DNA of 64,000 nucleotides from Escherichia coli (lineage in GTDB: Bacteria; Pseudomonadota; Gammaproteobacteria; Enterobacterales; Enterobacteriaceae): the NCBI RefSeq assembly GCF_003018235.1, contig NZ_CP027437.1, one strand, 5' to 3'. Positions 2,705 to 38,500 of the stretch are shown one piece after another. Below the pieces are notes generated by a model that saw only the letters and a program-made list of their open reading frames with translations, did no database searches and was not told where the DNA came from. Both the position numbers and the translations under genes were made by a program. How positions within the stretch are numbered: position 1 is the first letter of the stretch; each line of letters begins with the position of its first letter.

Positions 2705-3466
2705 ATGTCGCTCGTTTGTTCTGTTATATTTATTCATCATGCCTTCAACGCTAACATTTTAGATAAAGATTACGCCTTCTCTGACGGCGAGATCCTGATG
2801 GTAGATAACGCTGTTCGTACGCATTTTGAACCTTATGAGCGGCATTTCAAAGAAATCGGATTTAATGAAAATACCATTAAAAAATATCTACAATGCACTA
2901 ACATCCAGACAGTGACGGTGCCTGTTCCTGCGAAGTTTTTACGTGCTTCAAATGTACCGACTGGATTGCTTAATGAAATGATTGCTTATCTCAACTCGGA
3001 AGAACGCAATCATCATAATTTTTCAGAACTTTTGCTTTTTTCTTGCCTGTCTATTTTTGCCACATGCAAAGGTTTCATTACACTATTAACTAACGGTGTG
3101 CTATCCGTTTCCGGGAAAGTGAGAAATATTGTCAACATGAAGCTGGCGCACCCATGGAAGCTGAAAGATATTTGTGACTGCCTGTACATCAGTGAAAGCC
3201 TGCTCAAGAAAAAACTAAAGCAAGAGCAAACGACATTCTCACAGATTCTTTTAGATGCCAGAATGCAGCACGCAAAAAATTTGATACGCGTAGAAGGTTC
3301 AGTTAATAAAATTGCCGAACAATGTGGTTATGCCAGTACATCTTATTTTATTTATGCGTTCCGCAAACATTTCGGCAACAGTCCGAAGAGAGTTTCTAAG
3401 GAGTACCGTTGTCAAAGGCACACGGGAATAAATACGGGCAACACGATGAATGCTTTAGCTATTTGA
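2705..3466 (+). CDS. ydeO: AraC-family transcriptional activator YdeO (acid resistance)
   Basis: 253-aa ORF with C-terminal AraC-type HTH; AGGAG RBS 7 nt upstream of ATG; recognised as YdeO. Confidence 0.9.
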   Translation: MSLVCSVIFIHHAFNANILDKDYAFSDGEILMVDNAVRTHFEPYERHFKEIGFNENTIKKYLQCTNIQTVTVPVPAKFLRASNVPTGLLNEMIAYLNSEERNHHNFSELLLFSCLSIFATCKGFITLLTNGVLSVSGKVRNIVNMKLAHPWKLKDICDCLYISESLLKKKLKQEQTTFSQILLDARMQHAKNLIRVEGSVNKIAEQCGYASTSYFIYAFRKHFGNSPKRVSKEYRCQRHTGINTGNTMNALAI

Positions 3467-3515
3467 TTATTTGCTAACAAGTATTCAACCACGCACCCTA
3501 CGTAAAAATTAAAAT

Positions 3516-3536
3516 GGGGCAGCCATTCCCTGCCCC
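3516..3536 (+). terminator. Stem-loop (ggggcag ... ctgcccc) downstream of ydeO
   Basis: Inverted repeat read in sequence; weak T-tract. Confidence 0.35.
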
Positions 3537-3868
3537 GCGTTGTCTCCAGTCGATATATTATCATGAGATAAATAAGTGACAGCCGTCACATATTTATGCA
3601 TTTACATAACCTGTTGCATGATTATTTATGATCTCAATTCTGGATTTTGTCAGTAAATATAATATTTTATTAAATATCAATGGATTAGATGTTTATCATT
3701 GAGAAATTACTTAGTAGAACAGAAAGTAATGTCAACGCTTTATGGACTGTTATTTCCCTTTTTTTAGCTAAATCTGCTATCTCTTTATGTGACTAACTTC
3801 ACTTACACCCACTTATTTCTCTTCGTAAAATTACTTTGGAATTAAGTACAATAAGAAGAGGAACATTT

Positions 3869-5551
3869 ATGAAGTCTGCATTAAAGAAAAGTGTCGTAAG
3901 TACCTCGATATCTTTGATACTGGCATCTGGTATGGCTGCATTTGCTGCTCATGCGGCAGATGATGTAAAGCTGAAAGCAACCAAAACAAACGTTGCTTTC
4001 TCAGACTTTACGCCGACTGAATACAGTACCAAGGGAAAGCCAAATATTATCGTACTGACTATGGATGATCTTGGTTATGGACAACTTCCTTTTGATAAGG
4101 GATCTTTTGACCCAAAAACAATGGAAAATCGTGAAGTTGTCGATACCTACAAAATAGGGATAGATAAAGCCATTGAAGCTGCGCAAAAATCAACGCCGAC
4201 GCTCCTTTCATTAATGGATGAAGGCGTACGTTTTACTAACGGCTATGTGGCGCACGGTGTTTCCGGCCCCTCCCGCGCCGCAATAATGACCGGTCGAGCG
4301 CCCGCCCGCTTTGGTGTCTATTCCAATACCGATGCTCAGGATGGTATTCCGCTAACAGAAACTTTCTTGCCTGAATTATTCCAGAATCATGGTTATTACA
4401 CTGCAGCAGTAGGTAAATGGCACTTGTCAAAAATCAGTAATGTGCCGGTACCGGAAGATAAACAAACGCGTGACTATCATGACAACTTCACCACATTTTC
4501 TGCGGAAGAATGGCAACCTCAAAACCGTGGCTTTGATTACTTTATGGGATTCCACGCTGCAGGAACGGCATATTACAACTCCCCTTCACTGTTCAAAAAC
4601 CGTGAACGCGTCCCCGCAAAAGGTTATATCAGCGATCAGTTAACCGATGAGGCAATTGGCGTTGTTGATCGTGCCAAAACACTTGACCAGCCTTTTATGC
4701 TTTACCTGGCTTATAATGCTCCGCACCTGCCAAATGATAATCCTGCACCGGAGCAATATCAGAAGCAATTTAATACTGGTAGTCAAACAGCAGATAACTA
4801 CTACGCTTCCGTTTATTCTGTTGATCAGGGTGTAAAACGCATTCTCGAACAACTGAAGAAGAACGGACAGTATGACAATACTATTATTCTCTTTACCTCC
4901 GATAATGGTGCGGTTATCGATGGTCCTCTGCCGCTGAACGGGGCGCAAAAAGGCTATAAGAGTCAGACCTATCCTGGCGGTACTCACACCCCAATGTTTA
5001 TGTGGTGGAAAGGAAAACTTCAACCCGGTAATTATGACAAGCTGATTTCCGCAATGGATTTCTACCCGACAGCTCTTGATGCAGCCGATATCAGCATTCC
5101 AAAAGACCTTAAGCTGGATGGCGTTTCCTTGCTGCCCTGGTTGCAAGATAAGAAACAAGGTGAGCCACATAAAAATCTGACCTGGATAACCTCTTATTCT
5201 CACTGGTTTGATGAGGAAAATATTCCCTTCTGGGATAATTACCACAAATTTGTCCGCCATCAGTCAGACGATTACCCGCATAACCCCAACACCGAGGATT
5301 TAAGCCAATTCTCTTATACGGTGAGAAATAACGATTATTCGCTAGTCTATACAGTAGAAAACAATCAGTTAGGTCTCTACAAACTGACGGATCTACAGCA
5401 AAAAGATAACCTTGCCTCCGCGAATCCGCAGGTCGTTAAAGAGATGCAAGGCGTGGTAAGAGAGTTTATCGACAACAGCCAGCCACCGCTTAGCGAGGTA
5501 AATCAGGAGAAGTTTAACAATATCAAGAAAGCACTAAGCGAAGCGAAATAA
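3869..5551 (+). CDS. ydeN: Putative serine-type sulfatase YdeN with signal peptide
   Basis: Start at ATG 3869 (MKSALKK..., AGAGGAA RBS) within ORF 3836..5551; sulfatase active-site signature with Ser in place of Cys (GVSGPSRAAIMTGR). Confidence 0.9.
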   Translation: MKSALKKSVVSTSISLILASGMAAFAAHAADDVKLKATKTNVAFSDFTPTEYSTKGKPNIIVLTMDDLGYGQLPFDKGSFDPKTMENREVVDTYKIGIDKAIEAAQKSTPTLLSLMDEGVRFTNGYVAHGVSGPSRAAIMTGRAPARFGVYSNTDAQDGIPLTETFLPELFQNHGYYTAAVGKWHLSKISNVPVPEDKQTRDYHDNFTTFSAEEWQPQNRGFDYFMGFHAAGTAYYNSPSLFKNRERVPAKGYISDQLTDEAIGVVDRAKTLDQPFMLYLAYNAPHLPNDNPAPEQYQKQFNTGSQTADNYYASVYSVDQGVKRILEQLKKNGQYDNTIILFTSDNGAVIDGPLPLNGAQKGYKSQTYPGGTHTPMFMWWKGKLQPGNYDKLISAMDFYPTALDAADISIPKDLKLDGVSLLPWLQDKKQGEPHKNLTWITSYSHWFDEENIPFWDNYHKFVRHQSDDYPHNPNTEDLSQFSYTVRNNDYSLVYTVENNQLGLYKLTDLQQKDNLASANPQVVKEMQGVVREFIDNSQPPLSEVNQEKFNNIKKALSEAK

Positions 5552-5563
5552 CTAAACCTTCAT

Positions 5564-5589
5564 GCGGCGGATTTTTCCGCCGCCTTATT
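5564..5589 (+). terminator. Hairpin gcggcgg-attttt-ccgccgc between ydeN and ydeM (partial terminator or attenuator)
   Basis: Inverted repeat read directly; sits only ~15 nt before the ydeM start so read-through is likely. Confidence 0.35.
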
Positions 5590-5602
5590 GAGCGAGATAG
5601 CG

Positions 5603-6760
5603 ATGCACGTTACAGCCAAGCCCTCCAGTTTTCAATGTAATCTCAAATGTGATTACTGTTTTTACCTTGAAAAAGAGTCGCAGTTTACTCATGAAAAATG
5701 GATGGATGACAGCACTCTGAAAGAGTTCATCAAACAATATATCGCAGCGTCTGGCAATCAGGTCTATTTTACCTGGCAAGGCGGTGAACCCACTCTGGCT
5801 GGCCTGGATTTTTTCCGTAAAGTTATTCACTATCAACAACGCTATGCCGGCCAAAAACGAATTTTTAATGCATTACAAACGAATGGCATTTTATTGAATA
5901 ATGAATGGTGTGCCTTTCTCAAAGAACATGAGTTTCTGGTTGGTATCTCGATCGATGGCCCCCAGGAGCTACATGACCGCTACAGACGCAGTAATTCAGG
6001 TAACGGTACTTTTGCAAAAGTGATAGCAGCCATCGAGCGTCTGAAATCATATCAAATAGAGTTTAATACGTTAACCGTCATTAATAACATTAATGTCCAT
6101 TACCCTCTTGAGGTTTATCATTTTTTAAAATCTATCGGCAGTAAACATATGCAATTTATCGAATTGCTCGAAACCGGGACGCCGAATATTGATTTCAGTG
6201 GTCATAGTGAGAACACATTCCGTATCATTGATTTTTCTGTGCCTCCTACGGCTTATGGCAAGTTTATGTCGACCATTTTTATGCAATGGGTTAAAAACGA
6301 TGTGGGTGAAATTTTCATCCGTCAGTTTGAAAGCTTTGCCAGCCGTTTTTTGGGGAATGGGCATACCAGTTGTATTTTCCAGGAGTCCTGCAAGGATAAT
6401 CTGGTTGTTGAAAGTAATGGAGACATTTACGAATGCGACCATTTTGTCTATCCACAGTACAAAATTGGAAACATTAATAAATCTGAACTTAAAACGATGA
6501 ACAGTGTACAACTGACAGCGCAAAAAAAACGGATTTCAGCGAAATGTCAGCAATGTGCATATAAACCTATCTGCAATGGCGGTTGCCCTAAGCATCGTAT
6601 TACTAAAGTAAACAATGAGACTGTTTCCTATTTTTGCGAAGGTTATAAAATCCTTTTTTCAACCATGGTACCTTATATGAACGCCATGGTGGAGTTAGCC
6701 AAGAACAGAGTACCGCTTTACCACATCATGGATGTTGCAAGACAAATGGAGAATAATTAA
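5603..6760 (+). CDS. ydeM: Radical-SAM anaerobic sulfatase-maturating enzyme homolog YdeM
   Basis: CxxxCxxC radical-SAM motif (CNLKCDYC) near the N-terminus plus C-terminal Cys clusters; start at ATG 5603 (MHVTAKPSS...). Confidence 0.9.
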
Positions 6761-7000
6761 TAACGCTCCCTCTTTGCTCCAGTCTTAGCTTCGTTCTTAT
6801 GGCCTTAACAAGACACCCGACATAAATTACTGTTGGGTGTTTCGTCATCATCATCTTCCCTTGCGAAAATTCTGACTTACGTGGTATGCGTCAGGGCATT
6901 AGCAATACCCTTGATTATCAATAGCATAACCATAACCACTGAAAATTAAAAAATTCTTTATATTTCATATTGTTAAATGATACTTAAATAAATTTCATCA

Positions 7001-7030
7001 GTAAATCATTGCCATAGATAATCATTGGAT
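7001..7030 (+). promoter_or_regulatory. Candidate Fur box upstream of yddA (aaatcatt...gataatcatt)
   Basis: Repeated GATAAT/ATCATT hexamers resembling the Fur consensus GATAATGATAATCATTATC; a second AATGATAACCATT element overlaps the yddA start codon. Confidence 0.4.
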
Positions 7031-7050
7031 GGCACAATCAATTTTCGCTA

Positions 7051-8736
7051 ATGATAACCATTCCCATTACATTTCGTATGTTGATAGCAAAGTATCTCTG
7101 TCTGCTGAAGCCCTTTTGGCTGCGTAAGAATAATAAAACTTCAGTGCTGTTAATCATTATTATCCTCGCCATGATCCTTGGCGTTGTTAAAATTCAGGTC
7201 TGGTTAAACGACTGGAATAATGATTTTTTCAATGCGCTAAGCCAGAAAGAAACCGATAAGCTTTGGCAGCTTGTTCTTTGGTTCCCTGCCCTGCTGGGGA
7301 TCTTTGTATTAATATCCGTAAACAAAACATGGTTAATTAAACTACTGACAATTCGCTGGCGCGAATGGTTAACAGATTACTACCTTAATCGCTGGTTTGC
7401 AGATAAAAACTACTACTTCACGCAGATCTACGGTGAGCATAAAAATACAGATAACCCTGACCAACGTATCGCTGAAGACATTCTCTTACTGATCAGCAAA
7501 ACGCTCAGCCTTTCATTTGGCTTCATCCAGTCACTTAGCATGCTGATCACCTTTACCGTTATTCTTTGGCAAAGCGCGGGTACGCTCTCATTCACTGTTG
7601 GTGGAACTGAATGGAATATCCAGGGGTATATGGTCTATACCGTCGTGCTCATTGTGATCTGTGGAACTTTATTTACCCATAAGGTTGGTAAACGTATTCG
7701 TCCGCTTAATGTGGAAAAACAACGTAGCGAAGCGACATTTCGAACTAATCTTGTGCAGCATAATAAGCAGGCAGAACTGATTGCGCTAAGCAATGCTGAG
7801 TCTTTACAACGCCAGGAGTTGAGCGACAATTTTCATACCATTAAAGAGAACTGGCATCGTTTAATGAATCGTCAGCGCTGGCTTGATTACTGGCAGAATA
7901 TTTATTCGCGCTCGCTTAGCGTTCTTCCCTACTTTCTGTTATTGCCACAGTTTATTAGCGGACAGATCAATCTGGGCGGACTGATGAAATCGCGCCAGGC
8001 ATTTATGCTGGTATCGAACAATTTAAGCTGGTTTATTTATAAATATGACGAACTCGCTGAACTGGCTGCGGTTATCGATCGCTTGTATGAGTTCCATCAA
8101 CTCACCGAACAGCGCCCTACGAATAAGCCAAAAAATTGCCAACATGCGGTTCAAGTGGCTGACGCGAGTATTCGTACTCCTGATAATAAGGTTATATTAG
8201 AGAACCTGAACTTTCATGTTTCGCCAGGCAAATGGCTCTTACTGAAAGGTTACTCTGGTGCGGGAAAAACCACACTGCTTAAAACATTATCCCACTGCTG
8301 GCCGTGGTTTAAAGGTGATATTTCGTCTCCTGCTGACAGTTGGTATGTGTCACAAACACCGTTAATCAAAACCGGCTTACTGAAAGAGATAATTTGTAAA
8401 GCACTTCCCTTGTCCGTAGACGATAAATCGTTGAGCGAAGTACTGCATCAGGTTGGTCTGGGGAAATTGGCTGCGCGTATTCATGACCACGATCGCTGGG
8501 GAGATATTCTTTCCAGCGGCGAAAAACAACGTATCGCCCTGGCACGATTAATTTTACGACGTCCGAAATGGATATTTCTTGACGAAACTACCTCTCATCT
8601 TGAGGAACAAGAGGCTATCCGCTTACTGCGTTTAGTGCGTGAAAAACTACCCACAAGCGGCGTCATTATGGTTACACATCAACCCGGTGTCTGGAACCTG
8701 GCTGATGATATTTGTGACATTAGCGCGGTTTTATAA
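7051..8736 (+). CDS. yddA: ABC transporter YddA, fused permease and ATPase (SbmA/BacA-like)
   Basis: 561-aa ORF; N-terminal membrane domain, Walker A (GYSGAGKTT) and ABC signature (LSSGEKQRIALARL). Confidence 0.9.
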   Translation: MITIPITFRMLIAKYLCLLKPFWLRKNNKTSVLLIIIILAMILGVVKIQVWLNDWNNDFFNALSQKETDKLWQLVLWFPALLGIFVLISVNKTWLIKLLTIRWREWLTDYYLNRWFADKNYYFTQIYGEHKNTDNPDQRIAEDILLLISKTLSLSFGFIQSLSMLITFTVILWQSAGTLSFTVGGTEWNIQGYMVYTVVLIVICGTLFTHKVGKRIRPLNVEKQRSEATFRTNLVQHNKQAELIALSNAESLQRQELSDNFHTIKENWHRLMNRQRWLDYWQNIYSRSLSVLPYFLLLPQFISGQINLGGLMKSRQAFMLVSNNLSWFIYKYDELAELAAVIDRLYEFHQLTEQRPTNKPKNCQHAVQVADASIRTPDNKVILENLNFHVSPGKWLLLKGYSGAGKTTLLKTLSHCWPWFKGDISSPADSWYVSQTPLIKTGLLKEIICKALPLSVDDKSLSEVLHQVGLGKLAARIHDHDRWGDILSSGEKQRIALARLILRRPKWIFLDETTSHLEEQEAIRLLRLVREKLPTSGVIMVTHQPGVWNLADDICDISAVL

Positions 8737-8773: not shown

Positions 8774-11146
8774 ATGAAGCGAGTTCTTATTCCTGGCGTC
8801 ATTTTATGTGGCGCTGATGTGGCGCAGGCCGTCGATGACAAAAATATGTACATGCATGTTTTTGAAGAGATGACGGTCTATGCTCCTGTCCCTGTACCCG
8901 TAAACGGCAACACGCATTACACCAGTGAAAGCATCGAGCGTTTACCGACCGGGAATGGCAATATCAGCGATCTGCTGAGAACCAACCCTGCGGTACGCAT
9001 GGATTCAACGCAAAGTACCTCATTGAACCAGGGAGATATTCGCCCTGAGAAAATCTCTATTCACGGTGCGTCGCCCTACCAGAATGCCTATTTGATTGAT
9101 GGTATTAGTGCAACTAATAACCTGAACCCAGCGAATGAGTCCGATGCCAGTAGTGCAACCAATATTAGCGGGATGTCACAGGGGTATTATCTAGATGTCA
9201 GCTTACTTGACAATGTGACGCTTTATGACAGTTTTGTGCCGGTTGAATTTGGTCGCTTCAATGGCGGGGTAATTGATGCAAAGATCAAACGCTTCAATGC
9301 TGATGATAGCAGCGTGAAACTGGGTTATCGCACTACGCGTTCGGACTGGTTAACATCGCATATCGATGAGAATAACAAGAGCGCATTTAATCAAGGTTCT
9401 TCAGGAAGTACTTATTACTCTCCAGATTTTAAAAAGAACTTTTATACCTTGTCGTTTAATCAGGAACTGGCTGATAACTTCGGCGTTACCGCCGGTTTAT
9501 CGCGCCGCCAGTCTGATATCACCCGCGCGGATTATGTTTCGAATGACGGCATTGTCGCCGGTCGGGCACAGTATAAAAACGTTATCGATACCGCAGTGAG
9601 CAAATTTACCTGGTTTGCCAGCGACCGCTTTACCCACGATTTAACATTAAAATATACCGGCTCCAGTCGTGATTATAATACCAGCACCTTCCCGCAGTCT
9701 GATCGTGAAATGGGTAATAAATCCTACGGTCTGGCATGGGATATGGATACGCAGCTCGCAAGGGCCAAACTACGTACCACCGTTGGTTGGGATCATATTA
9801 GTGATTATACCCGTCACGATCATGACATCTGGTACACCGAACTTTCATGTACATATGGTGATATTACAGGGCGTTGCACCCGTGGCGGATTAGGACACAT
9901 TTCCCAGGCTGTAGATAATTACACCTTCAAAACACGCCTGGACTGGCAAAAATTCACCGTGGGTAATGTTTCGCATCAACCCTACTTCGGCGCGGAATAC
10001 ATCTATTCCGATGCATGGACTGAACGCCATAACCAGTCTGAATCCTATGTGATTAATGCTGCCGGAAAGAAAACTAACCATACCATTTACCATAAAGGTA
10101 AAGGCAGCCTGGGAATTGACAACTATACGCTGTATATGGCGGATCGCATTAGCTGGCGTAATGTGTCATTAATGCCCGGCGTGCGGTATGACTATGACAA
10201 CTATCTGTCAAACCACAATATCTCCCCGCGCTTTATGACGGAATGGGATATTTTTGCTGATCAAACCTCAATGATTACCGCCGGTTATAACCGTTACTAT
10301 GGCGGGAATATTCTTGATATGGGATTACGTGATATCCGCAATAGCTGGACGGAATCGGTATCAGGCAATAAAACCCTGACGCGTTATCAGGATTTGAAAA
10401 CACCTTATAACGATGAACTGGCAATGGGGTTGCAGCAGAAAATCGGTAAGAACGTTATTGCGCGTGCAAACTATGTTTATCGTGAAGCGCATGATCAAAT
10501 CAGTAAAAGCAGTCGTACCGACAGCGCGACTAAAACCACCATTACTGAATATAACAACGACGGCAAAACCAAAACGCATTCGTTCAACCTCAGTTTTGAA
10601 CTGGCCGAACCCCTGCATATCAGCCAGGTAGATATTAACCCGCAAATTGTCTTTAGCTATATCAAGAGCAAGGGCAACTTGTCGTTAAACAATGGTTATG
10701 AGGAAAGCAATACCGGCGATAACCAGGTGGTTTATAACGGTAATCTGGTCTCTTACGATAGCGTTCCAGTGGCAGATTTTAATAACCCATTAAAGATCTC
10801 CTTAAACATGGATTTCACGCATCAACCGAGCGGGTTGGTGTGGGCGAATACGCTGGCCTGGCAAGAAGCGCGTAAAGCTCGCATTATCCTGGGTAAGACG
10901 AATGCGCAATACATCAGCGAATATTCAGATTACAAGCAGTATGTTGACGAAAAACTGGATAGCAGCCTGACCTGGGACACCCGCTTGTCCTGGACGCCAC
11001 AATTTCTGAAACAACAAAACCTGACGATCAGTGCCGATATTCTCAATGTACTGGATAGCAAAACCGCGGTTGATACAACGAATACCGGTGTGGCGACCTA
11101 CGCCAGTGGCCGTACTTTCTGGCTTGATGTCAGCATGAAATTTTAA
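8774..11146 (+). CDS. yddB: TonB-dependent outer-membrane transporter YddB
   Basis: 790-aa ORF, C-terminal aromatic residue (..VSMKF), beta-barrel-like composition; recognised as YddB. Confidence 0.9.
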   Translation: MKRVLIPGVILCGADVAQAVDDKNMYMHVFEEMTVYAPVPVPVNGNTHYTSESIERLPTGNGNISDLLRTNPAVRMDSTQSTSLNQGDIRPEKISIHGASPYQNAYLIDGISATNNLNPANESDASSATNISGMSQGYYLDVSLLDNVTLYDSFVPVEFGRFNGGVIDAKIKRFNADDSSVKLGYRTTRSDWLTSHIDENNKSAFNQGSSGSTYYSPDFKKNFYTLSFNQELADNFGVTAGLSRRQSDITRADYVSNDGIVAGRAQYKNVIDTAVSKFTWFASDRFTHDLTLKYTGSSRDYNTSTFPQSDREMGNKSYGLAWDMDTQLARAKLRTTVGWDHISDYTRHDHDIWYTELSCTYGDITGRCTRGGLGHISQAVDNYTFKTRLDWQKFTVGNVSHQPYFGAEYIYSDAWTERHNQSESYVINAAGKKTNHTIYHKGKGSLGIDNYTLYMADRISWRNVSLMPGVRYDYDNYLSNHNISPRFMTEWDIFADQTSMITAGYNRYYGGNILDMGLRDIRNSWTESVSGNKTLTRYQDLKTPYNDELAMGLQQKIGKNVIARANYVYREAHDQISKSSRTDSATKTTITEYNNDGKTKTHSFNLSFELAEPLHISQVDINPQIVFSYIKSKGNLSLNNGYEESNTGDNQVVYNGNLVSYDSVPVADFNNPLKISLNMDFTHQPSGLVWANTLAWQEARKARIILGKTNAQYISEYSDYKQYVDEKLDSSLTWDTRLSWTPQFLKQQNLTISADILNVLDSKTAVDTTNTGVATYASGRTFWLDVSMKF

Positions 11147-35599: not shown

Positions 35600-38500
35600 T
35601 TACGCCTTCTCAATGTTGACTAAGAACGCTTTATATTCCGGCGTTTGCGAGTTTGCATCACCGACATTCGGCGTCAGAGTGTTAGCGATATAACCTTTAC
35701 GCGCGACACCCTCAAAGCCCCAGTGGATTGGAATACCCACCGTTTCAACCTGCTGACCGTTTACATTCAGCGGCTTCAGACGGCGCGTTACCACAGCCAC
35801 CGCGCGGATAAAGCCACGCTTGCTGGATACGGTGACACGGTCGCCATTGGCGATGCCTTTCGCCGCCGCCAGCGTTTCGCTGATTTCCACAAACTGTTCC
35901 GGCTGAGCAATGGCGTTGAGCAATGCATGCTTAGTCCAGGTGTGGAAGTGCTCGGTCAGACGATAGGTCGTACCCACATACGGGAACTGCTCTTTTTTAC
36001 CCATCCGCAGCGCGTCTTGTTCATACAGACGAACGACCGGGTTAGACACCACGTTCGGATGCAGCGGGTTAGTGCCCAGCGGCGTTTCAATTGGCTCGTA
36101 GTGTTCCGGGAACGGACCTTCCGCCATTTTGTTGATGGCAAACAGGCGTCCCATCCCTTCCGGCTGCATGATAAACGGTCCGGTTGGCGTACCTGGCGCG
36201 GCATTGCCGAAGTCCGGAATATCGTTACCCGTCCACTTGCTGCCGTTCCACTGGATCAGCATCCGTTTCGGATCCCACGGTTTACCGTTGATATCCGCCG
36301 AAGCACGGTTGTACAGCACGCGACGGTTGAGCGGCCACGCCCAGGCCCATCCCAGCGTATTCCCCAGACCGGATGGGTCGGAGTTATCGCGGTTAGCCAT
36401 CTGGTTGCCCTGCTCTGTCCAGCTACCGGTGTAGATCCAGCAAGACGATGCGGTTGTACCGTCATCACGCAGATGCGCAAAGCTACTCAGCAACTGACCT
36501 TTCTTCGCAATCAGCACGCCATTGGCATCATAGAGATCTTCCAGCGCGTAGCCGTTGTTCTCTTTAGCTACTTCGTCAGATTGCGGTTCGTGCGGCTGCT
36601 TGTAGTTCCAGCTCATCTTCATCAGCGGTTCTACGCCTTTACCACCTTCGGCCTGGTACAACTCGCGCAGATGATGGTAGATACCCGCCAGAATTTCGCC
36701 GTCGTTACGCGCTTCGCCCGGCGCGTCCTGACCTTTCCAGTGCCACTGCAACCAGCGACCGGAGTTAGCGATAGAACCATCTTCTTCAGCAAAGCAGGTC
36801 GAAGGCAGACGGAATACTTCAGTCTGAATAGACGCCGGATCGACATCGTTCGACTCGCCGTGGTTCTGCCAGAAGGTTGAGGTTTCAGTCACCAGCGGAT
36901 CGATAACCACCATGTACTTCAGTTTGCTCAGGCAGCTCACCACTTTGTTTTTGTCCGGGAAGGACGCAACCGGGTTAAAGCCCTGGCAGAAATAACCGGT
37001 GACTTTGCCTTCGTCCATCATGTTGAAATACTTGATGACGTCGTAGGTCTGGTCCCACTTCGGCAGCCAGTCGTAGCCCCAGTTGTTCTCTTTTTGCGCG
37101 GCATCGCCGTAGAAAGATTTCATAAGGCTAACGAAGAACTTCGGATAGTTGCTCCAGTAGTTCACCTGATCAGCCAGCGTCGCTTTCGGCGTGTTCGCTT
37201 CCAGATACGACTGCAAATCAACCTGTTTTTCTGACGGCAGCGTCAGATAACCCGGCAGGCTGGTAGAGAGCAGGCCTAAGTCGGTCAGACCCTGAATGTT
37301 GGAGTGACCACGCAATGCGTTCACGCCGCCACCGGCCATACCCATGTTACCGAGCAGTAACTGGATCATCGCCATAGTGCGGATGTTCTGCGCACCCACG
37401 GTGTGCTGCGTCCAGCCCAGCGCGTACAGGAAGGTGGTGGTGCGATCCGGCGCGCTGGTGGAGGCCAGCACTTCACACACTTTCAGGAAGTCGGCTTTTG
37501 GCGTACCGCAGATGTTTTCTACTACATCCGGCGTGTAGCGGGAAACGTGCTCTTTCAGCAGGTTCCACACACAGCGCGGATGAGTCAGTGTTTCATCGCG
37601 TTTCGCATAGCCGTTTTCATCGAACTGATAGTTCCAGGACGATTTATCGTACTGGCGTTTTTCAGCGTCGTAGCCGCTGAACAGACCGTCTTCGAAAGCA
37701 AAATCATCACGCACCAGCAGGCTGGCATTGGTGTAATGCTTAACGTATTCGGCATTGATTTTGTTGTTTTCGATCAGGTAGCGCAAAACGCCAGACAGGA
37801 ACGTAATGTCCGTACCGGAACGAATAGGTGCGTAAATATCCGCTACAGAAGCGGTACGCGTAAAACGGGGATCGACAACGATCAAGGTTGCATCGTTGTT
37901 GTTTTTCGCTTCCATCGCCCAGCGGAAACCGACGGGATGCGCTTCAGCAGCGTTACCGCCCATCACCATCACGACGTTAGCGTTTTTGATATCCACCCAG
38001 TGGTTGGTCATCGCACCGCGACCAAATGTTGGAGCAAGACTTGCTACCGTTGGTCCGTGTCAGACGCGCGCCTGGTTGTCTACCGCCAGCATCCCGAGGG
38101 AGCGGGCAAATTTCTGGGTCAGCATCCCGGTTTCGTTGCTGGCACCGGAGGCACACAGCATACCGGTAGAAAGCCAACGGTTTACCGTTACGCCCTGCTC
38201 GTTCTTTTCAATAAAGTTAGCGTCACGGTCAGCTTTCATCAGCTTCGCTATACGGGAGAATGCTTCTTCCCAGCTAATGCGCTGCCATTTGTCAGAACCT
38301 GGCGCACGATATTCCGGGTAGCGCAGACGGTTTTCGCTGTTGACGTAATCCAGCAAACCGGCCCCTTTCGGGCACAGCGCACCACGGCTTACCGGATGAT
38401 CCGGGTCACCTTCAATGTGATAAATCGCTTCTCTGGCGTTTTTCGCGCCATCACCCAGGCTATACATCAATAGCCCGCAACCTACGGAACAGTATGTGCA

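Follow-up and report, generated by a model that had tools for sequence, protein, structure and literature searches.

Does the ydeN–ydeM locus of Escherichia coli encode a sulfatase together with its own activating enzyme, and on what compounds might such a pair act? We approached this question in a window of 64,000 nucleotides (the whole stretch of DNA analysed; contig NZ_CP027437.1 of RefSeq assembly GCF_003018235.1), in which the two genes occupy positions 3869–6760 on the plus strand, in agreement with the annotated gene ends, with 51 nt from the ydeN stop to the ydeM start. RefSeq gives identical coordinates and names the products 'sulfatase-like hydrolase/transferase' and 'anaerobic sulfatase maturase', respectively. 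The pairing is long known and is no discovery: E. coli genomes carry it as standard annotation, and the literature, beginning with Schirmer & Kolter 1998, has reportedly treated ydeM as the maturase of YdeN. To our knowledge, neither a substrate nor an experimentally established route of maturation has been reported for any E. coli sulfatase. What is new here is the strict linkage of the two genes, the apparently derived Ser state of the sulfatase, the similarity of its modelled fold to S1_19 and S1_16 enzymes, the purifying selection on both genes and a conserved intercistronic hairpin; these comparative results narrow the choice of experiments, while the pair as a discovery carries little weight. 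In the literature, aslB and ydeM are termed putative anaerobic sulfatase-maturating enzymes (anSMEs), with sulfatase maturation in E. coli described as 'not fully understood' (PMC8379841), and the substrate of YdeN is unreported, as the original prediction had it (PMC10878103).

Sequence features of YdeN and YdeM

The coding features of the locus are as follows.

3869..5551, + strand: ydeN, putative Ser-type S1 (formylglycine-dependent) sulfatase precursor, 560 aa (ORF, Pfam, RefSeq, AF2 fold)
3869..3955, + strand: predicted Sec-type signal peptide of YdeN, aa 1–29 (MKSALKK, hydrophobic core, A-H-A, then ADD; read from the sequence, with inferred cleavage site)
4262..4297, + strand: sulfatase signature S132-G-P-S-R136-A-A-I-M-T-G-R143 (translation, orthologue conservation)
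5603..6760, + strand: ydeM, putative anaerobic sulfatase-maturating enzyme (radical SAM plus SPASM), 385 aa, without signal peptide (Pfam, NCBIfam, RefSeq)
5636..5659, + strand: radical-SAM cluster motif C12-x3-C16-x2-C19 (CNLKCDYC; translation, aligned with CNLKCTYC of anSMEcpe)
6371..6637, + strand: SPASM region with eight auxiliary-cluster cysteines and D279 (translation, 4K36 alignment)

YdeN had been predicted to carry S-G-P-S-R instead of the C-x-P-x-R sulfatase signature, and this motif is indeed seen at residues 132–136 of the translation (YVAHGV-S132-G-P-S-R136-AAIMTGR), following the pattern [C/S]-x-P-x-R, then x3-L/M-T-G, in a protein whose 560 residues include no cysteine. SGPSR was present in 11 of 11 representative orthologue sequences and was pattern-matched in 63 further matches, with S132, P134 and R136 invariant in the orthologue alignment; Ser132 is the predicted formylglycine precursor. 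The protein covers the whole Pfam Sulfatase profile (PF00884, positions 1–301) at 1.3e-70 and 238.6 bits (cutoff 25). Across 62 homologues, down to 26% identity, D66, D67, R136, H185, D345 and K364 were invariant, and K183, H286 and N346 were at least 90% conserved; we take these metal and catalytic residues to have the roles of their counterparts in P. aeruginosa AtsA and human ARSA, after which they were mapped.

The N terminus reads as two lysines, a hydrophobic core and AHA-AD, with no twin-arginine (RR) motif, and residues 1–46 are of low confidence in the AF2 model. Overall, the model reached a pLDDT of 92.1 and a pTM of 0.89 when built on the 62-sequence alignment from the representative search (14 close orthologues gave a pLDDT of 39.9). 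Its top 50 Foldseek matches in the PDB were all S1 sulfatases (E down to 4.6e-35), the best folds being S1_19 carrageenan sulfatases (TM 0.80–0.83, normalised to target), then S1_16, and S1_19 also came top in the sequence search (E about 1e-51). The assignment of YdeN as a Ser-type S1 sulfatase is thus supported by signature, profile and modelled fold. A literature search found no report of formylglycine on YdeN, nor of sulfate-ester hydrolysis by it. The Ser type itself is nothing special: 21% of S1 sulfatases belong to it (PMC5066984), E. coli AslA among them.

The S1_19 carrageenan sulfatases (ZgCgsA, 9HH2/9HH3; PsS1_19A/B, 6B0J and 6PSM) share with YdeN the catalytic core and the G-P-S-R context, but they are Cys-type, marine and encoded in polysaccharide-utilisation loci, whereas YdeN is Ser-type and stand-alone. 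YdeN further differs in a ~30-residue insert after DDLGYG (aa 73–108) and in a longer C-terminal domain. At 26–28% identity over the structural alignment, which is too low to transfer specificity, these enzymes are its nearest solved relatives, and YdeN is not assigned as a member of their SulfAtlas subfamily (S1_19, galactose-4-sulfate/carrageenan sulfatases). Galactose-4-sulfate sulfatases of S1_19 and S1_16 thereby provide the solved structures closest to YdeN.

The downstream gene, originally described as radical-SAM and anSME-like, encodes a full-length protein with CNLKCDYC at residues 12–19 that matches NCBIfam TIGR03942 ('anaerobic sulfatase maturase') over positions 1–362 of 363, at 502.8 bits (cutoff 349.45). 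Pfam returned Radical_SAM (1.3e-22) and SPASM (3.5e-06, aa 264–318), while the anSMEcpe-specific equivalog NF010321 scored 253 bits, below its cutoff of 441. The putative auxiliary-cluster cysteines are C257, C263, C278, C315, C318, C324, C328 and C345, with D279 following C278. Residues 4–359 (356 residues) aligned with Clostridium perfringens anSMEcpe (PDB 4K36–4K39) at E 1.2e-62, and in the comparison with 4K36 the CX3CX2C motif and the eight auxiliary cysteines (eleven together) were all in register, as was the C-D pair (Asp after the third SPASM cysteine). These matches support YdeM as a full-length anSME-family radical-SAM/SPASM enzyme. The natural substrate of anSMEcpe is a Cys-type sulfatase, whereas the neighbour of ydeM encodes a Ser-type one.

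The textbook model for the predicted role of the pair is AtsA/AtsB of Klebsiella pneumoniae (Miech 1998, as cited in PMC5066984), in which the gene for a Ser-type sulfatase, a periplasmic enzyme there, likewise adjoins that for an anSME-family iron–sulfur enzyme; the AtsB-type enzyme reportedly turns the Ser of AtsA into formylglycine. In Klebsiella, atsB comes before atsA, whereas in ydeN–ydeM the sulfatase comes first and a hairpin lies between the genes; moreover, the nearest relatives of YdeN are carbohydrate sulfatases (S1_19/S1_16), unlike the arylsulfatase AtsA. Within E. coli, AslA resembles YdeN in being Ser-type (SSPTR at aa 136 of the K-12 translation) and in lying beside an anSME gene, aslB, whose product is, like YdeM, a full-length anSME (CNLNCDYC; 41% identical to YdeM). 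However, aslB and aslA are convergent, in contrast to the co-directional ydeN and ydeM, and AslA is only 27% identical to YdeN.

Linkage, mobility and origin of the pair

That the two genes form a self-contained pair, as had been proposed, is borne out by their travelling together among genomes and plasmids. Downstream DNA was available for 22 orthologous loci (Enterobacterales, Vibrionaceae, Psychromonas and Anaerobiospirillum; at least ten genera), and in every one of them ydeM directly followed a Ser-type ydeN, while the flanking genes differed. Since an adjacent anSME was found in 2 of 57 loci of distant sulfatases, compared with 22 of 22 for ydeN orthologues, the pairing is not due to chance. 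On a Proteus conjugative plasmid, the cassette adjoins an integrase (PMC8615141).

On the E. coli chromosome the gene order is ydeP-safA-ydeO-ydeN-ydeM-yddA-yddB. The acid-resistance regulators safA and ydeO, whose proximity had been pointed out, do lie immediately upstream of ydeN, a neighbourhood specific to Escherichia among the orthologous loci compared. At these loci, no neighbour beyond ydeN and ydeM was conserved across genera, and no glycoside hydrolase or dedicated transporter was linked to the pair. As clues to the substrate we rejected the other recurrent ORFs, which were of housekeeping type (HtpX-like M48 peptidase, aldo-keto reductase, GAPDH, MalQ and ThiI), as well as an ABC transporter near the pair in Yersinia, which was not conserved elsewhere.

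The nearest outgroup sulfatases of YdeN (37–45% identity) are Cys-type, with C-G-P-S-R; its Ser state therefore appears to be derived, and the switch to Ser would coincide with the gain of a dedicated maturase. Both genes are under strong purifying selection, with dN/dS of 0.015–0.047 for ydeN and 0.033–0.111 for ydeM.

Intercistronic hairpin and regulatory region

Three non-coding features accompany the genes.

3802..3831, + strand: candidate sigma-70 promoter-like site for ydeN, CTTACA-18-TAAAAT (consensus scan, 9/12 matches)
5564..5583, + strand: intercistronic GC-rich hairpin, GCGGCGGA-TTTT-TCCGCCGC, then CTTATTGAG (fold, shuffles, covariation)
6811..6842, + strand: candidate hairpin beyond the 3' end of ydeM, terminator-like in form, with a 12-bp stem and a weak T tract (fold, z only -1.8)

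The intercistronic hairpin ends 19 nt 5' of the ydeM start codon and resembles a terminator, though its T tract is poor (4 T in 9). It folds at -16.2 kcal/mol, its score was reached by none of 200 shuffles, and the z-score of a 71-nt fold was only -1.7. In K-12 the structure is identical, and every orthologous locus from Enterobacterales has it at the corresponding position; for these loci RNAalifold returned nine pairs, all of them backed by one or more compensatory double changes. Most likely, the majority of transcripts would end, or be stabilised, at the hairpin behind ydeN, leaving the maturase at a much lower level than the sulfatase. The candidate hairpin downstream of ydeM overlaps yneP, a small gene on the opposite strand, and was not called by the terminator scan. 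An Rfam search of positions 3400–7100 found no known RNA family; the sole match in the window was a SECIS element at 38007–38065.

The promoter-like site lies 38 nt 5' of the ydeN start codon, within a 34%-GC intergenic region; such sites were no more numerous in the region scanned than in shuffles. For ydeM, the same consensus scan gave no plus-strand promoter-like site of its own, either in the 51-nt spacer or in the 3'-terminal 200 nt of ydeN. According to the literature, ydeN and ydeM are co-transcribed and, in the mouse gut, relieved of repression by mutation of araC (PMC10878103), arabinose-bound AraC represses both genes (PMC3738151, PMC10878103) and binds upstream of ydeN only when arabinose is present (PMC3738151), and GadX represses ydeN, with binding upstream (PMC4918353). 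An AraC site upstream of ydeN was not placeable from sequence, the half-site pattern being at chance level: TAGC-N7-TCCATA occurred 42 times in the window against 48 expected, with no occurrence between ydeO and ydeN.

Proposed mechanism, alternatives and possible substrates

Very probably, in our view, ydeN and ydeM form an operon of two genes whose end product is a periplasmic sulfatase activated under anaerobic conditions. Going by its homologues AtsB and anSMEcpe, cytoplasmic YdeM, with one [4Fe-4S] cluster that binds SAM and two auxiliary ones, would bind the unfolded YdeN precursor at SGPSRAAIMTGR and take the C-beta hydrogen off Ser132, yielding C-alpha-formylglycine without oxygen. Modification would precede export, an order that we infer, and the modified protein would then leave by the Sec route and fold with a divalent metal bound by D66, D67, D345 and N346, where the formylglycine hydrate, together with R136, K183, H185, H286 and K364, may hydrolyse a sulfate ester. 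Counting against this reading, Klebsiella AtsA expressed in E. coli reportedly needs co-expressed AtsB, which suggests that YdeM would be silent or inactive on AtsA under laboratory conditions.

The distribution of related sulfatases bears on an alternative that is compatible with this operon rather than exclusive of it, namely that YdeM is a general anaerobic maturase, which also or mainly serves AslA (SSPTR), YidJ (CTPAR) and a maturase-less plasmid paralogue of YdeN. This Ser-type paralogue, 77% identical and found on IncF plasmids and islands of E. coli, lacks an anSME gene within 6 kb and must therefore be matured in trans, and among the distant loci one Ser-type sulfatase, from a Tannerellaceae MAG, likewise had no anSME on the sequence examined. 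It counts in the same direction that anSMEs are said to accept both Ser and Cys motifs. However, the adjacency in 22 of 22 loci amid unrelated flanks across genera points to a cognate pair, and AslA has an adjacent AslB of its own; a general role for YdeM is, in our view, possible though doubtful.

The same genomes and regulatory data speak to whether the pair is active at all. A cryptic, effectively silent remnant without a current physiological role would be consistent with the 34%-GC upstream region and with reports that GadX (PMC4918353) and arabinose-bound AraC (PMC3738151) act as repressors, which together suggest tight silencing, with a phenotype or substrate being unreported for the pair (PMC10878103) and with an IS element inside ydeN in some strains. 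We nevertheless regard this as improbable, given that dN/dS is 0.015–0.11 for both genes, that 5323 of 5426 complete E. coli genomes keep the region at a coverage of at least 80%, that catalytic and cluster residues are all intact and that, in araC-mutant cells in the mouse gut, expression of ydeM is raised (PMC10878103). YdeN might also be another hydrolase of the formylglycine/alkaline-phosphatase superfamily, such as a phosphonate-monoester hydrolase or a phosphodiesterase, and no sulfatase, as weak matches to Pfam Phosphodiest (1.3e-07) and to NCBIfam PehA (67 bits against a cutoff of 900), along with its cautious RefSeq name, could be taken to indicate. The Pfam Sulfatase match is, however, about 60 orders of magnitude stronger than that to Phosphodiest, the full signature and the S1-typical K/H/K residues are conserved, and the leading 50 structural matches are sulfatases without exception, which leaves very little room for such an activity.

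If ydeN–ydeM does encode an anaerobically activated periplasmic sulfatase, its substrate would probably be a small solute that can enter the periplasm, most likely one of the sulfated sugars; going by the solved structures closest to YdeN, our best guess is a galacto-configured 4-O-sulfate. That GadX and arabinose-bound AraC repress the pair, and that it is induced in araC-mutant cells in the mouse gut, may be a sign that it serves to scavenge sulfated compounds from host or diet in anaerobic conditions. A broader scenario, which we offer tentatively and think unlikely to hold jointly in all its parts, would make the YdeN clade a stand-alone, horizontally mobile cassette of two genes, derived from Cys-type relatives of galactose-4-sulfate sulfatases through a Cys-to-Ser switch with capture of a private maturase. 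With it, gut facultative anaerobes would remove sulfate, in the periplasm, from small sulfated sugars of galacto configuration, such as Gal-4S or GalNAc-4S freed by primary degraders from chondroitin sulfate, mucin or dietary carrageenan; the conserved intercistronic hairpin would set a high sulfatase-to-maturase ratio, and plasmid-borne porin-sulfatase paralogues would use the chromosomal maturase in trans. In the anaerobic gut bacterium Bacteroides thetaiotaomicron, sulfatase activity depends on a radical-SAM maturase, according to the account of Benjdia 2011 given in PMC10878103; there, one unlinked anSME (ChuR) serves many sulfatases, whereas ydeN–ydeM is a linked one-to-one cassette.

Organisation and products of the ydeN–ydeM locus

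The genes annotated as ydeN and ydeM follow one another on the plus strand, separated by a 51-nt spacer that contains a hairpin.

Features of the ydeN–ydeM locus (window coordinates)
3869..5551, (+): ydeN, 560 aa, S1 sulfatase
5564-5583, (+): hairpin in the ydeN–ydeM spacer, GCGGCGGA-TTTT-TCCGCCGC, then CTTATTGAG
5603..6760, (+): ydeM, 385 aa, anaerobic sulfatase-maturating enzyme (anSME)

In the RefSeq annotation of strain ETEC1738 and of a second strain, the order is ydeP, safA, ydeO, ydeN, ydeM, yneP (opposite strand), yddA, yddB, pqqL; it is identical in K-12 MG1655, where the two genes are named 'putative sulfatase YdeN' (b1498) and 'putative anaerobic sulfatase maturation enzyme YdeM' (b1497). 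Relative to K-12, YdeN differs at 3 positions and YdeM at 5, leaving the motifs unaffected. A 3.3-kb query over both genes matched 5381 of 5426 complete E. coli genomes (5323 with at least 80% coverage), the top match, ETEC1738, being 100% identical and most remaining matches 95–99%. The feature is real, correctly described and interpreted, and already known; given these gene names and the published literature, the original prediction restates current annotation.

Translation of ydeN bore out the noted S-G-P-S-R and placed it at residues 132–136 (YVAHGV-S132-G-P-S-R136-AAIMTGR), with a Pfam Sulfatase match of 1.3e-70 and no cysteine among all 560 residues. In an alignment of 62 sequences, including homologues as low as 26% identity, D66, D67, R136, H185, D345 and K364 were invariant and K183, H286 and N346 at least 90% conserved; we take these, after P. 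aeruginosa AtsA and human ARSA, to be the positions at which S1 sulfatases bind metal and carry out catalysis. From the 62 sequences AlphaFold produced a model with pLDDT 92.1 and pTM 0.89 (pLDDT 39.9 with only 14 close orthologues). In most YdeN orthologues outside Escherichia (P0019, P0028, P0064 and others in the orthologue alignment A1), the signature ends in M-T-A-R rather than M-T-G-R; in SulfAtlas this Gly is 98% conserved, with Ala in just 14 of about 4058 sequences (PMC5066984).

The next gene was likewise found to be the predicted radical-SAM anSME-like one with CNLKCDYC: YdeM carries the triad C12-NLK-C16-DY-C19 plus nine more cysteines, matches Pfam Radical_SAM (1.3e-22) and SPASM (3.5e-06), and scores 502.8 bits end to end against the NCBIfam equivalog TIGR03942 'anaerobic sulfatase maturase' (cutoff 349.45 bits). 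Residues 4–359 align with the C. perfringens anSME of known crystal structure (4K36, E 1.2e-62); the alignment matches the triad, all eight SPASM cysteines (C257, C263, C278, C315, C318, C324, C328, C345) and D279, which directly follows the third of them, to their counterparts.

The N terminus of YdeN resembles a Sec signal peptide, with MKSALKK ahead of a hydrophobic core, then A-H-A before ADD, and no twin arginine, while YdeM lacks a signal peptide, a combination that fits cytoplasmic modification of an unfolded precursor followed by export. This order of events is established for Klebsiella AtsA/AtsB. Cytoplasmic YdeM, using SAM and three [4Fe-4S] clusters, would convert Ser132 of the YdeN precursor, while this is still unfolded, to formylglycine by an oxidation independent of O2; Sec would then export the modified protein, which, with a bound divalent metal, would hydrolyse a sulfate ester on a small periplasm-accessible compound.

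Linkage of the pair and origin of the serine

Scanning one genome per species for loci encoding YdeN relatives, we found a same-strand YdeM homologue following in all 22 orthologous loci (YdeN identity at least 67%) that had downstream sequence. These came from Escherichia, Leminorella, Citrobacter, Budvicia, Cedecea, Yersinia, Mixta, Grimontia, Psychromonas and several Anaerobiospirillum species, and their YdeN orthologues were Ser-type throughout (serine at the formylglycine position). The same scan yielded 57 distant sulfatase loci: 48 Cys-type without an anSME, one Cys-type with, one Ser-type with and one without, and six untypable. When all flanking ORFs were clustered, only ydeN and ydeM recurred across genera, apart from a few housekeeping genes, in agreement with the proposal of a self-contained pair; ydeO, yddA and yddB flank it in Escherichia only. 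On a Proteus conjugative plasmid, the same sulfatase–maturase pair adjoins a tyrosine recombinase, as described previously (PMC8615141). Given the complete linkage, the variable flanks and this plasmid copy, the two genes behave as a stand-alone, mobile cassette.

In an exhaustive HMMER search against 1.84 billion cluster representatives, the YdeN clade stood out as tight and isolated, with a gap in scores between 972 bits (75% identity) and 449 bits (43%). Its nearest outgroup sulfatases carry C-G-P-S-R or C-x-P-S-R, which makes serine the derived state in the clade, coinciding with possession of a private maturase. The coincidence makes sense because, to our knowledge, serine is oxidised by radical-SAM maturases only, oxygen-dependent FGE being incapable of it. 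The Ser-type state is not unusual among sulfatases; it accounts for 21% of S1 sulfatases in SulfAtlas, every one from facultative or strict anaerobes (PMC5066984).

Intercistronic hairpin and regulation

The spacer hairpin ends 19 nt ahead of the ydeM ATG. All Enterobacterales orthologous loci have a GC-rich hairpin (−15 to −19 kcal/mol) 12–23 nt before the ydeM start, and at each of them 0 of 200 shuffled sequences reached the observed score. The RNAalifold consensus of nine sequences contains nine pairs, and for every pair one or more of the sequences show a double change that preserves pairing. Strong hairpins also occur at the more distant loci, whose spacers are longer, and several of these hairpins have a good T tract. 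The E. coli T tract is weak, with a z-score of only −1.7 for the 71-nt fold, and no promoter-like site was found on the plus strand between the ydeN end and ydeM. On the simplest reading, the hairpin would be a leaky intrinsic terminator or a 3'-end-stabilising element, giving more sulfatase than maturase message, and may set the expression ratio of the two.

The main reference for deletions of aslB and ydeM is reportedly Benjdia 2007, and that for the AraC regulon Stringer 2014. ydeN is a direct AraC target and ydeMN is strongly expressed in an araC mutant (PMC10878103), AraC binding upstream of ydeN only with arabinose (PMC3738151). The noted link to acid-resistance regulators has a parallel in published work: GadX binds the ydeN promoter and lowers its transcript (PMC4918353), but the ydeO/safA neighbourhood is confined to Escherichia.

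Alternative readings and candidate substrates

We consider ydeN–ydeM very probably a sulfatase and its maturase. That the pair is a cryptic relic is very unlikely, being contradicted by strong purifying selection on both genes: dN/dS against another E. coli, Escherichia sp. and E. albertii was 0.047, 0.022 and 0.015 for ydeN and 0.111, 0.059 and 0.033 for ydeM. All top 50 structural matches of the YdeN model in the PDB were S1 sulfatases, and a non-sulfatase hydrolase is extremely improbable. Compatible with the enzyme pair, though rather doubtful, is a role of YdeM as a shared maturase. It draws support from a second, Ser-type YdeN paralogue in some E. coli (77% identical, 565 aa, SGPSR; locus L083, 4770-8024, and L088 on plasmid NZ_CP096835.1, 4769-8024), which is found on IncF plasmids or islands, immediately following a Porin_1 gene; IS elements and an S6 (SPATE) autotransporter lie nearby. 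With no anSME found within 6 kb, maturation of this paralogue would have to occur in trans.

K-12 encodes further sulfatases. AslA is Ser-type (S-S-P-T-R in translation, ruling out a Cys-type assignment) and convergent with the full-length anSME AslB, 41% identical to YdeM (L085, K-12 3981000-3989000). YidJ is Cys-type (C-T-P-A-R), with the 165-aa YidF nearby, whose weak similarity is limited to the C-terminal half of YdeM (L087, K-12 3853000-3864000).

Among solved structures, the best sequence relatives of YdeN are S1_19 sulfatases (E about 1e-51 to 1e-42), namely ZgCgsA (9HH2/9HH3) and the iota- and kappa-carrageenan sulfatases of Pseudoalteromonas (6BIA/6B0J/6PSM), with an S1_16 enzyme next; the fold ranking is the same (TM 0.80–0.83, normalised to target; 26–28% identity over the alignment). 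Both subfamilies take sulfate off O4 of galactose or GalNAc, which is a substrate lead rather than a transferable specificity. YdeN departs from these enzymes in its longer C-terminal domain, in its location outside any polysaccharide-utilisation locus and in an insert of ~30 residues after DDLGYG (aa 73–108); the insert splits the phmmer alignment, but the Cys-type outgroups of YdeN have it too. Within the enzyme-pair reading, a carbohydrate substrate is only a tentative proposal, somewhat short of an even chance, and galacto-4-O-sulfate in particular is unlikely. YdeN substrates are unreported, with a role in mucin use speculated (PMC10878103); what E. coli sulfatases act on, and what they do for the cell, is a genuine but narrow question.

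Several minor observations concern the surroundings. Between ydeO and ydeN, a terminator-like site at 3516-3536 (−), a 7-bp GC stem then ATTTTAATTT, is oriented as if ending transcripts that start upstream of ydeN and run in the direction of ydeO; on the plus strand the stem may act as a ydeO terminator, but has no T tract there. A small ORF annotated as yneP (40 aa, 6726-6848, (−)), listed in the closest strain as 'hypothetical protein', runs antisense to the final 35 nt of ydeM and also overlaps a candidate hairpin downstream of that gene. yddB (8774-11146, (+)) is an intact 790-aa ORF here; in the otherwise 100% identical ETEC1738 an internal stop interrupts it and the annotation calls it a pseudogene. 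Contig JARKOR010000108.1 (L003), binned into a 'Candidatus Nanosynbacter' MAG, carries ydeO-ydeN-ydeM-yddA-yddB at 98–99% protein identity to E. coli and is almost certainly a mis-binned E. coli contig. Elsewhere in the window, an Rfam SECIS_3 element (38007-38065, (−); 84.3 bits against a gathering score of 63) presumably lies within a formate dehydrogenase gene.
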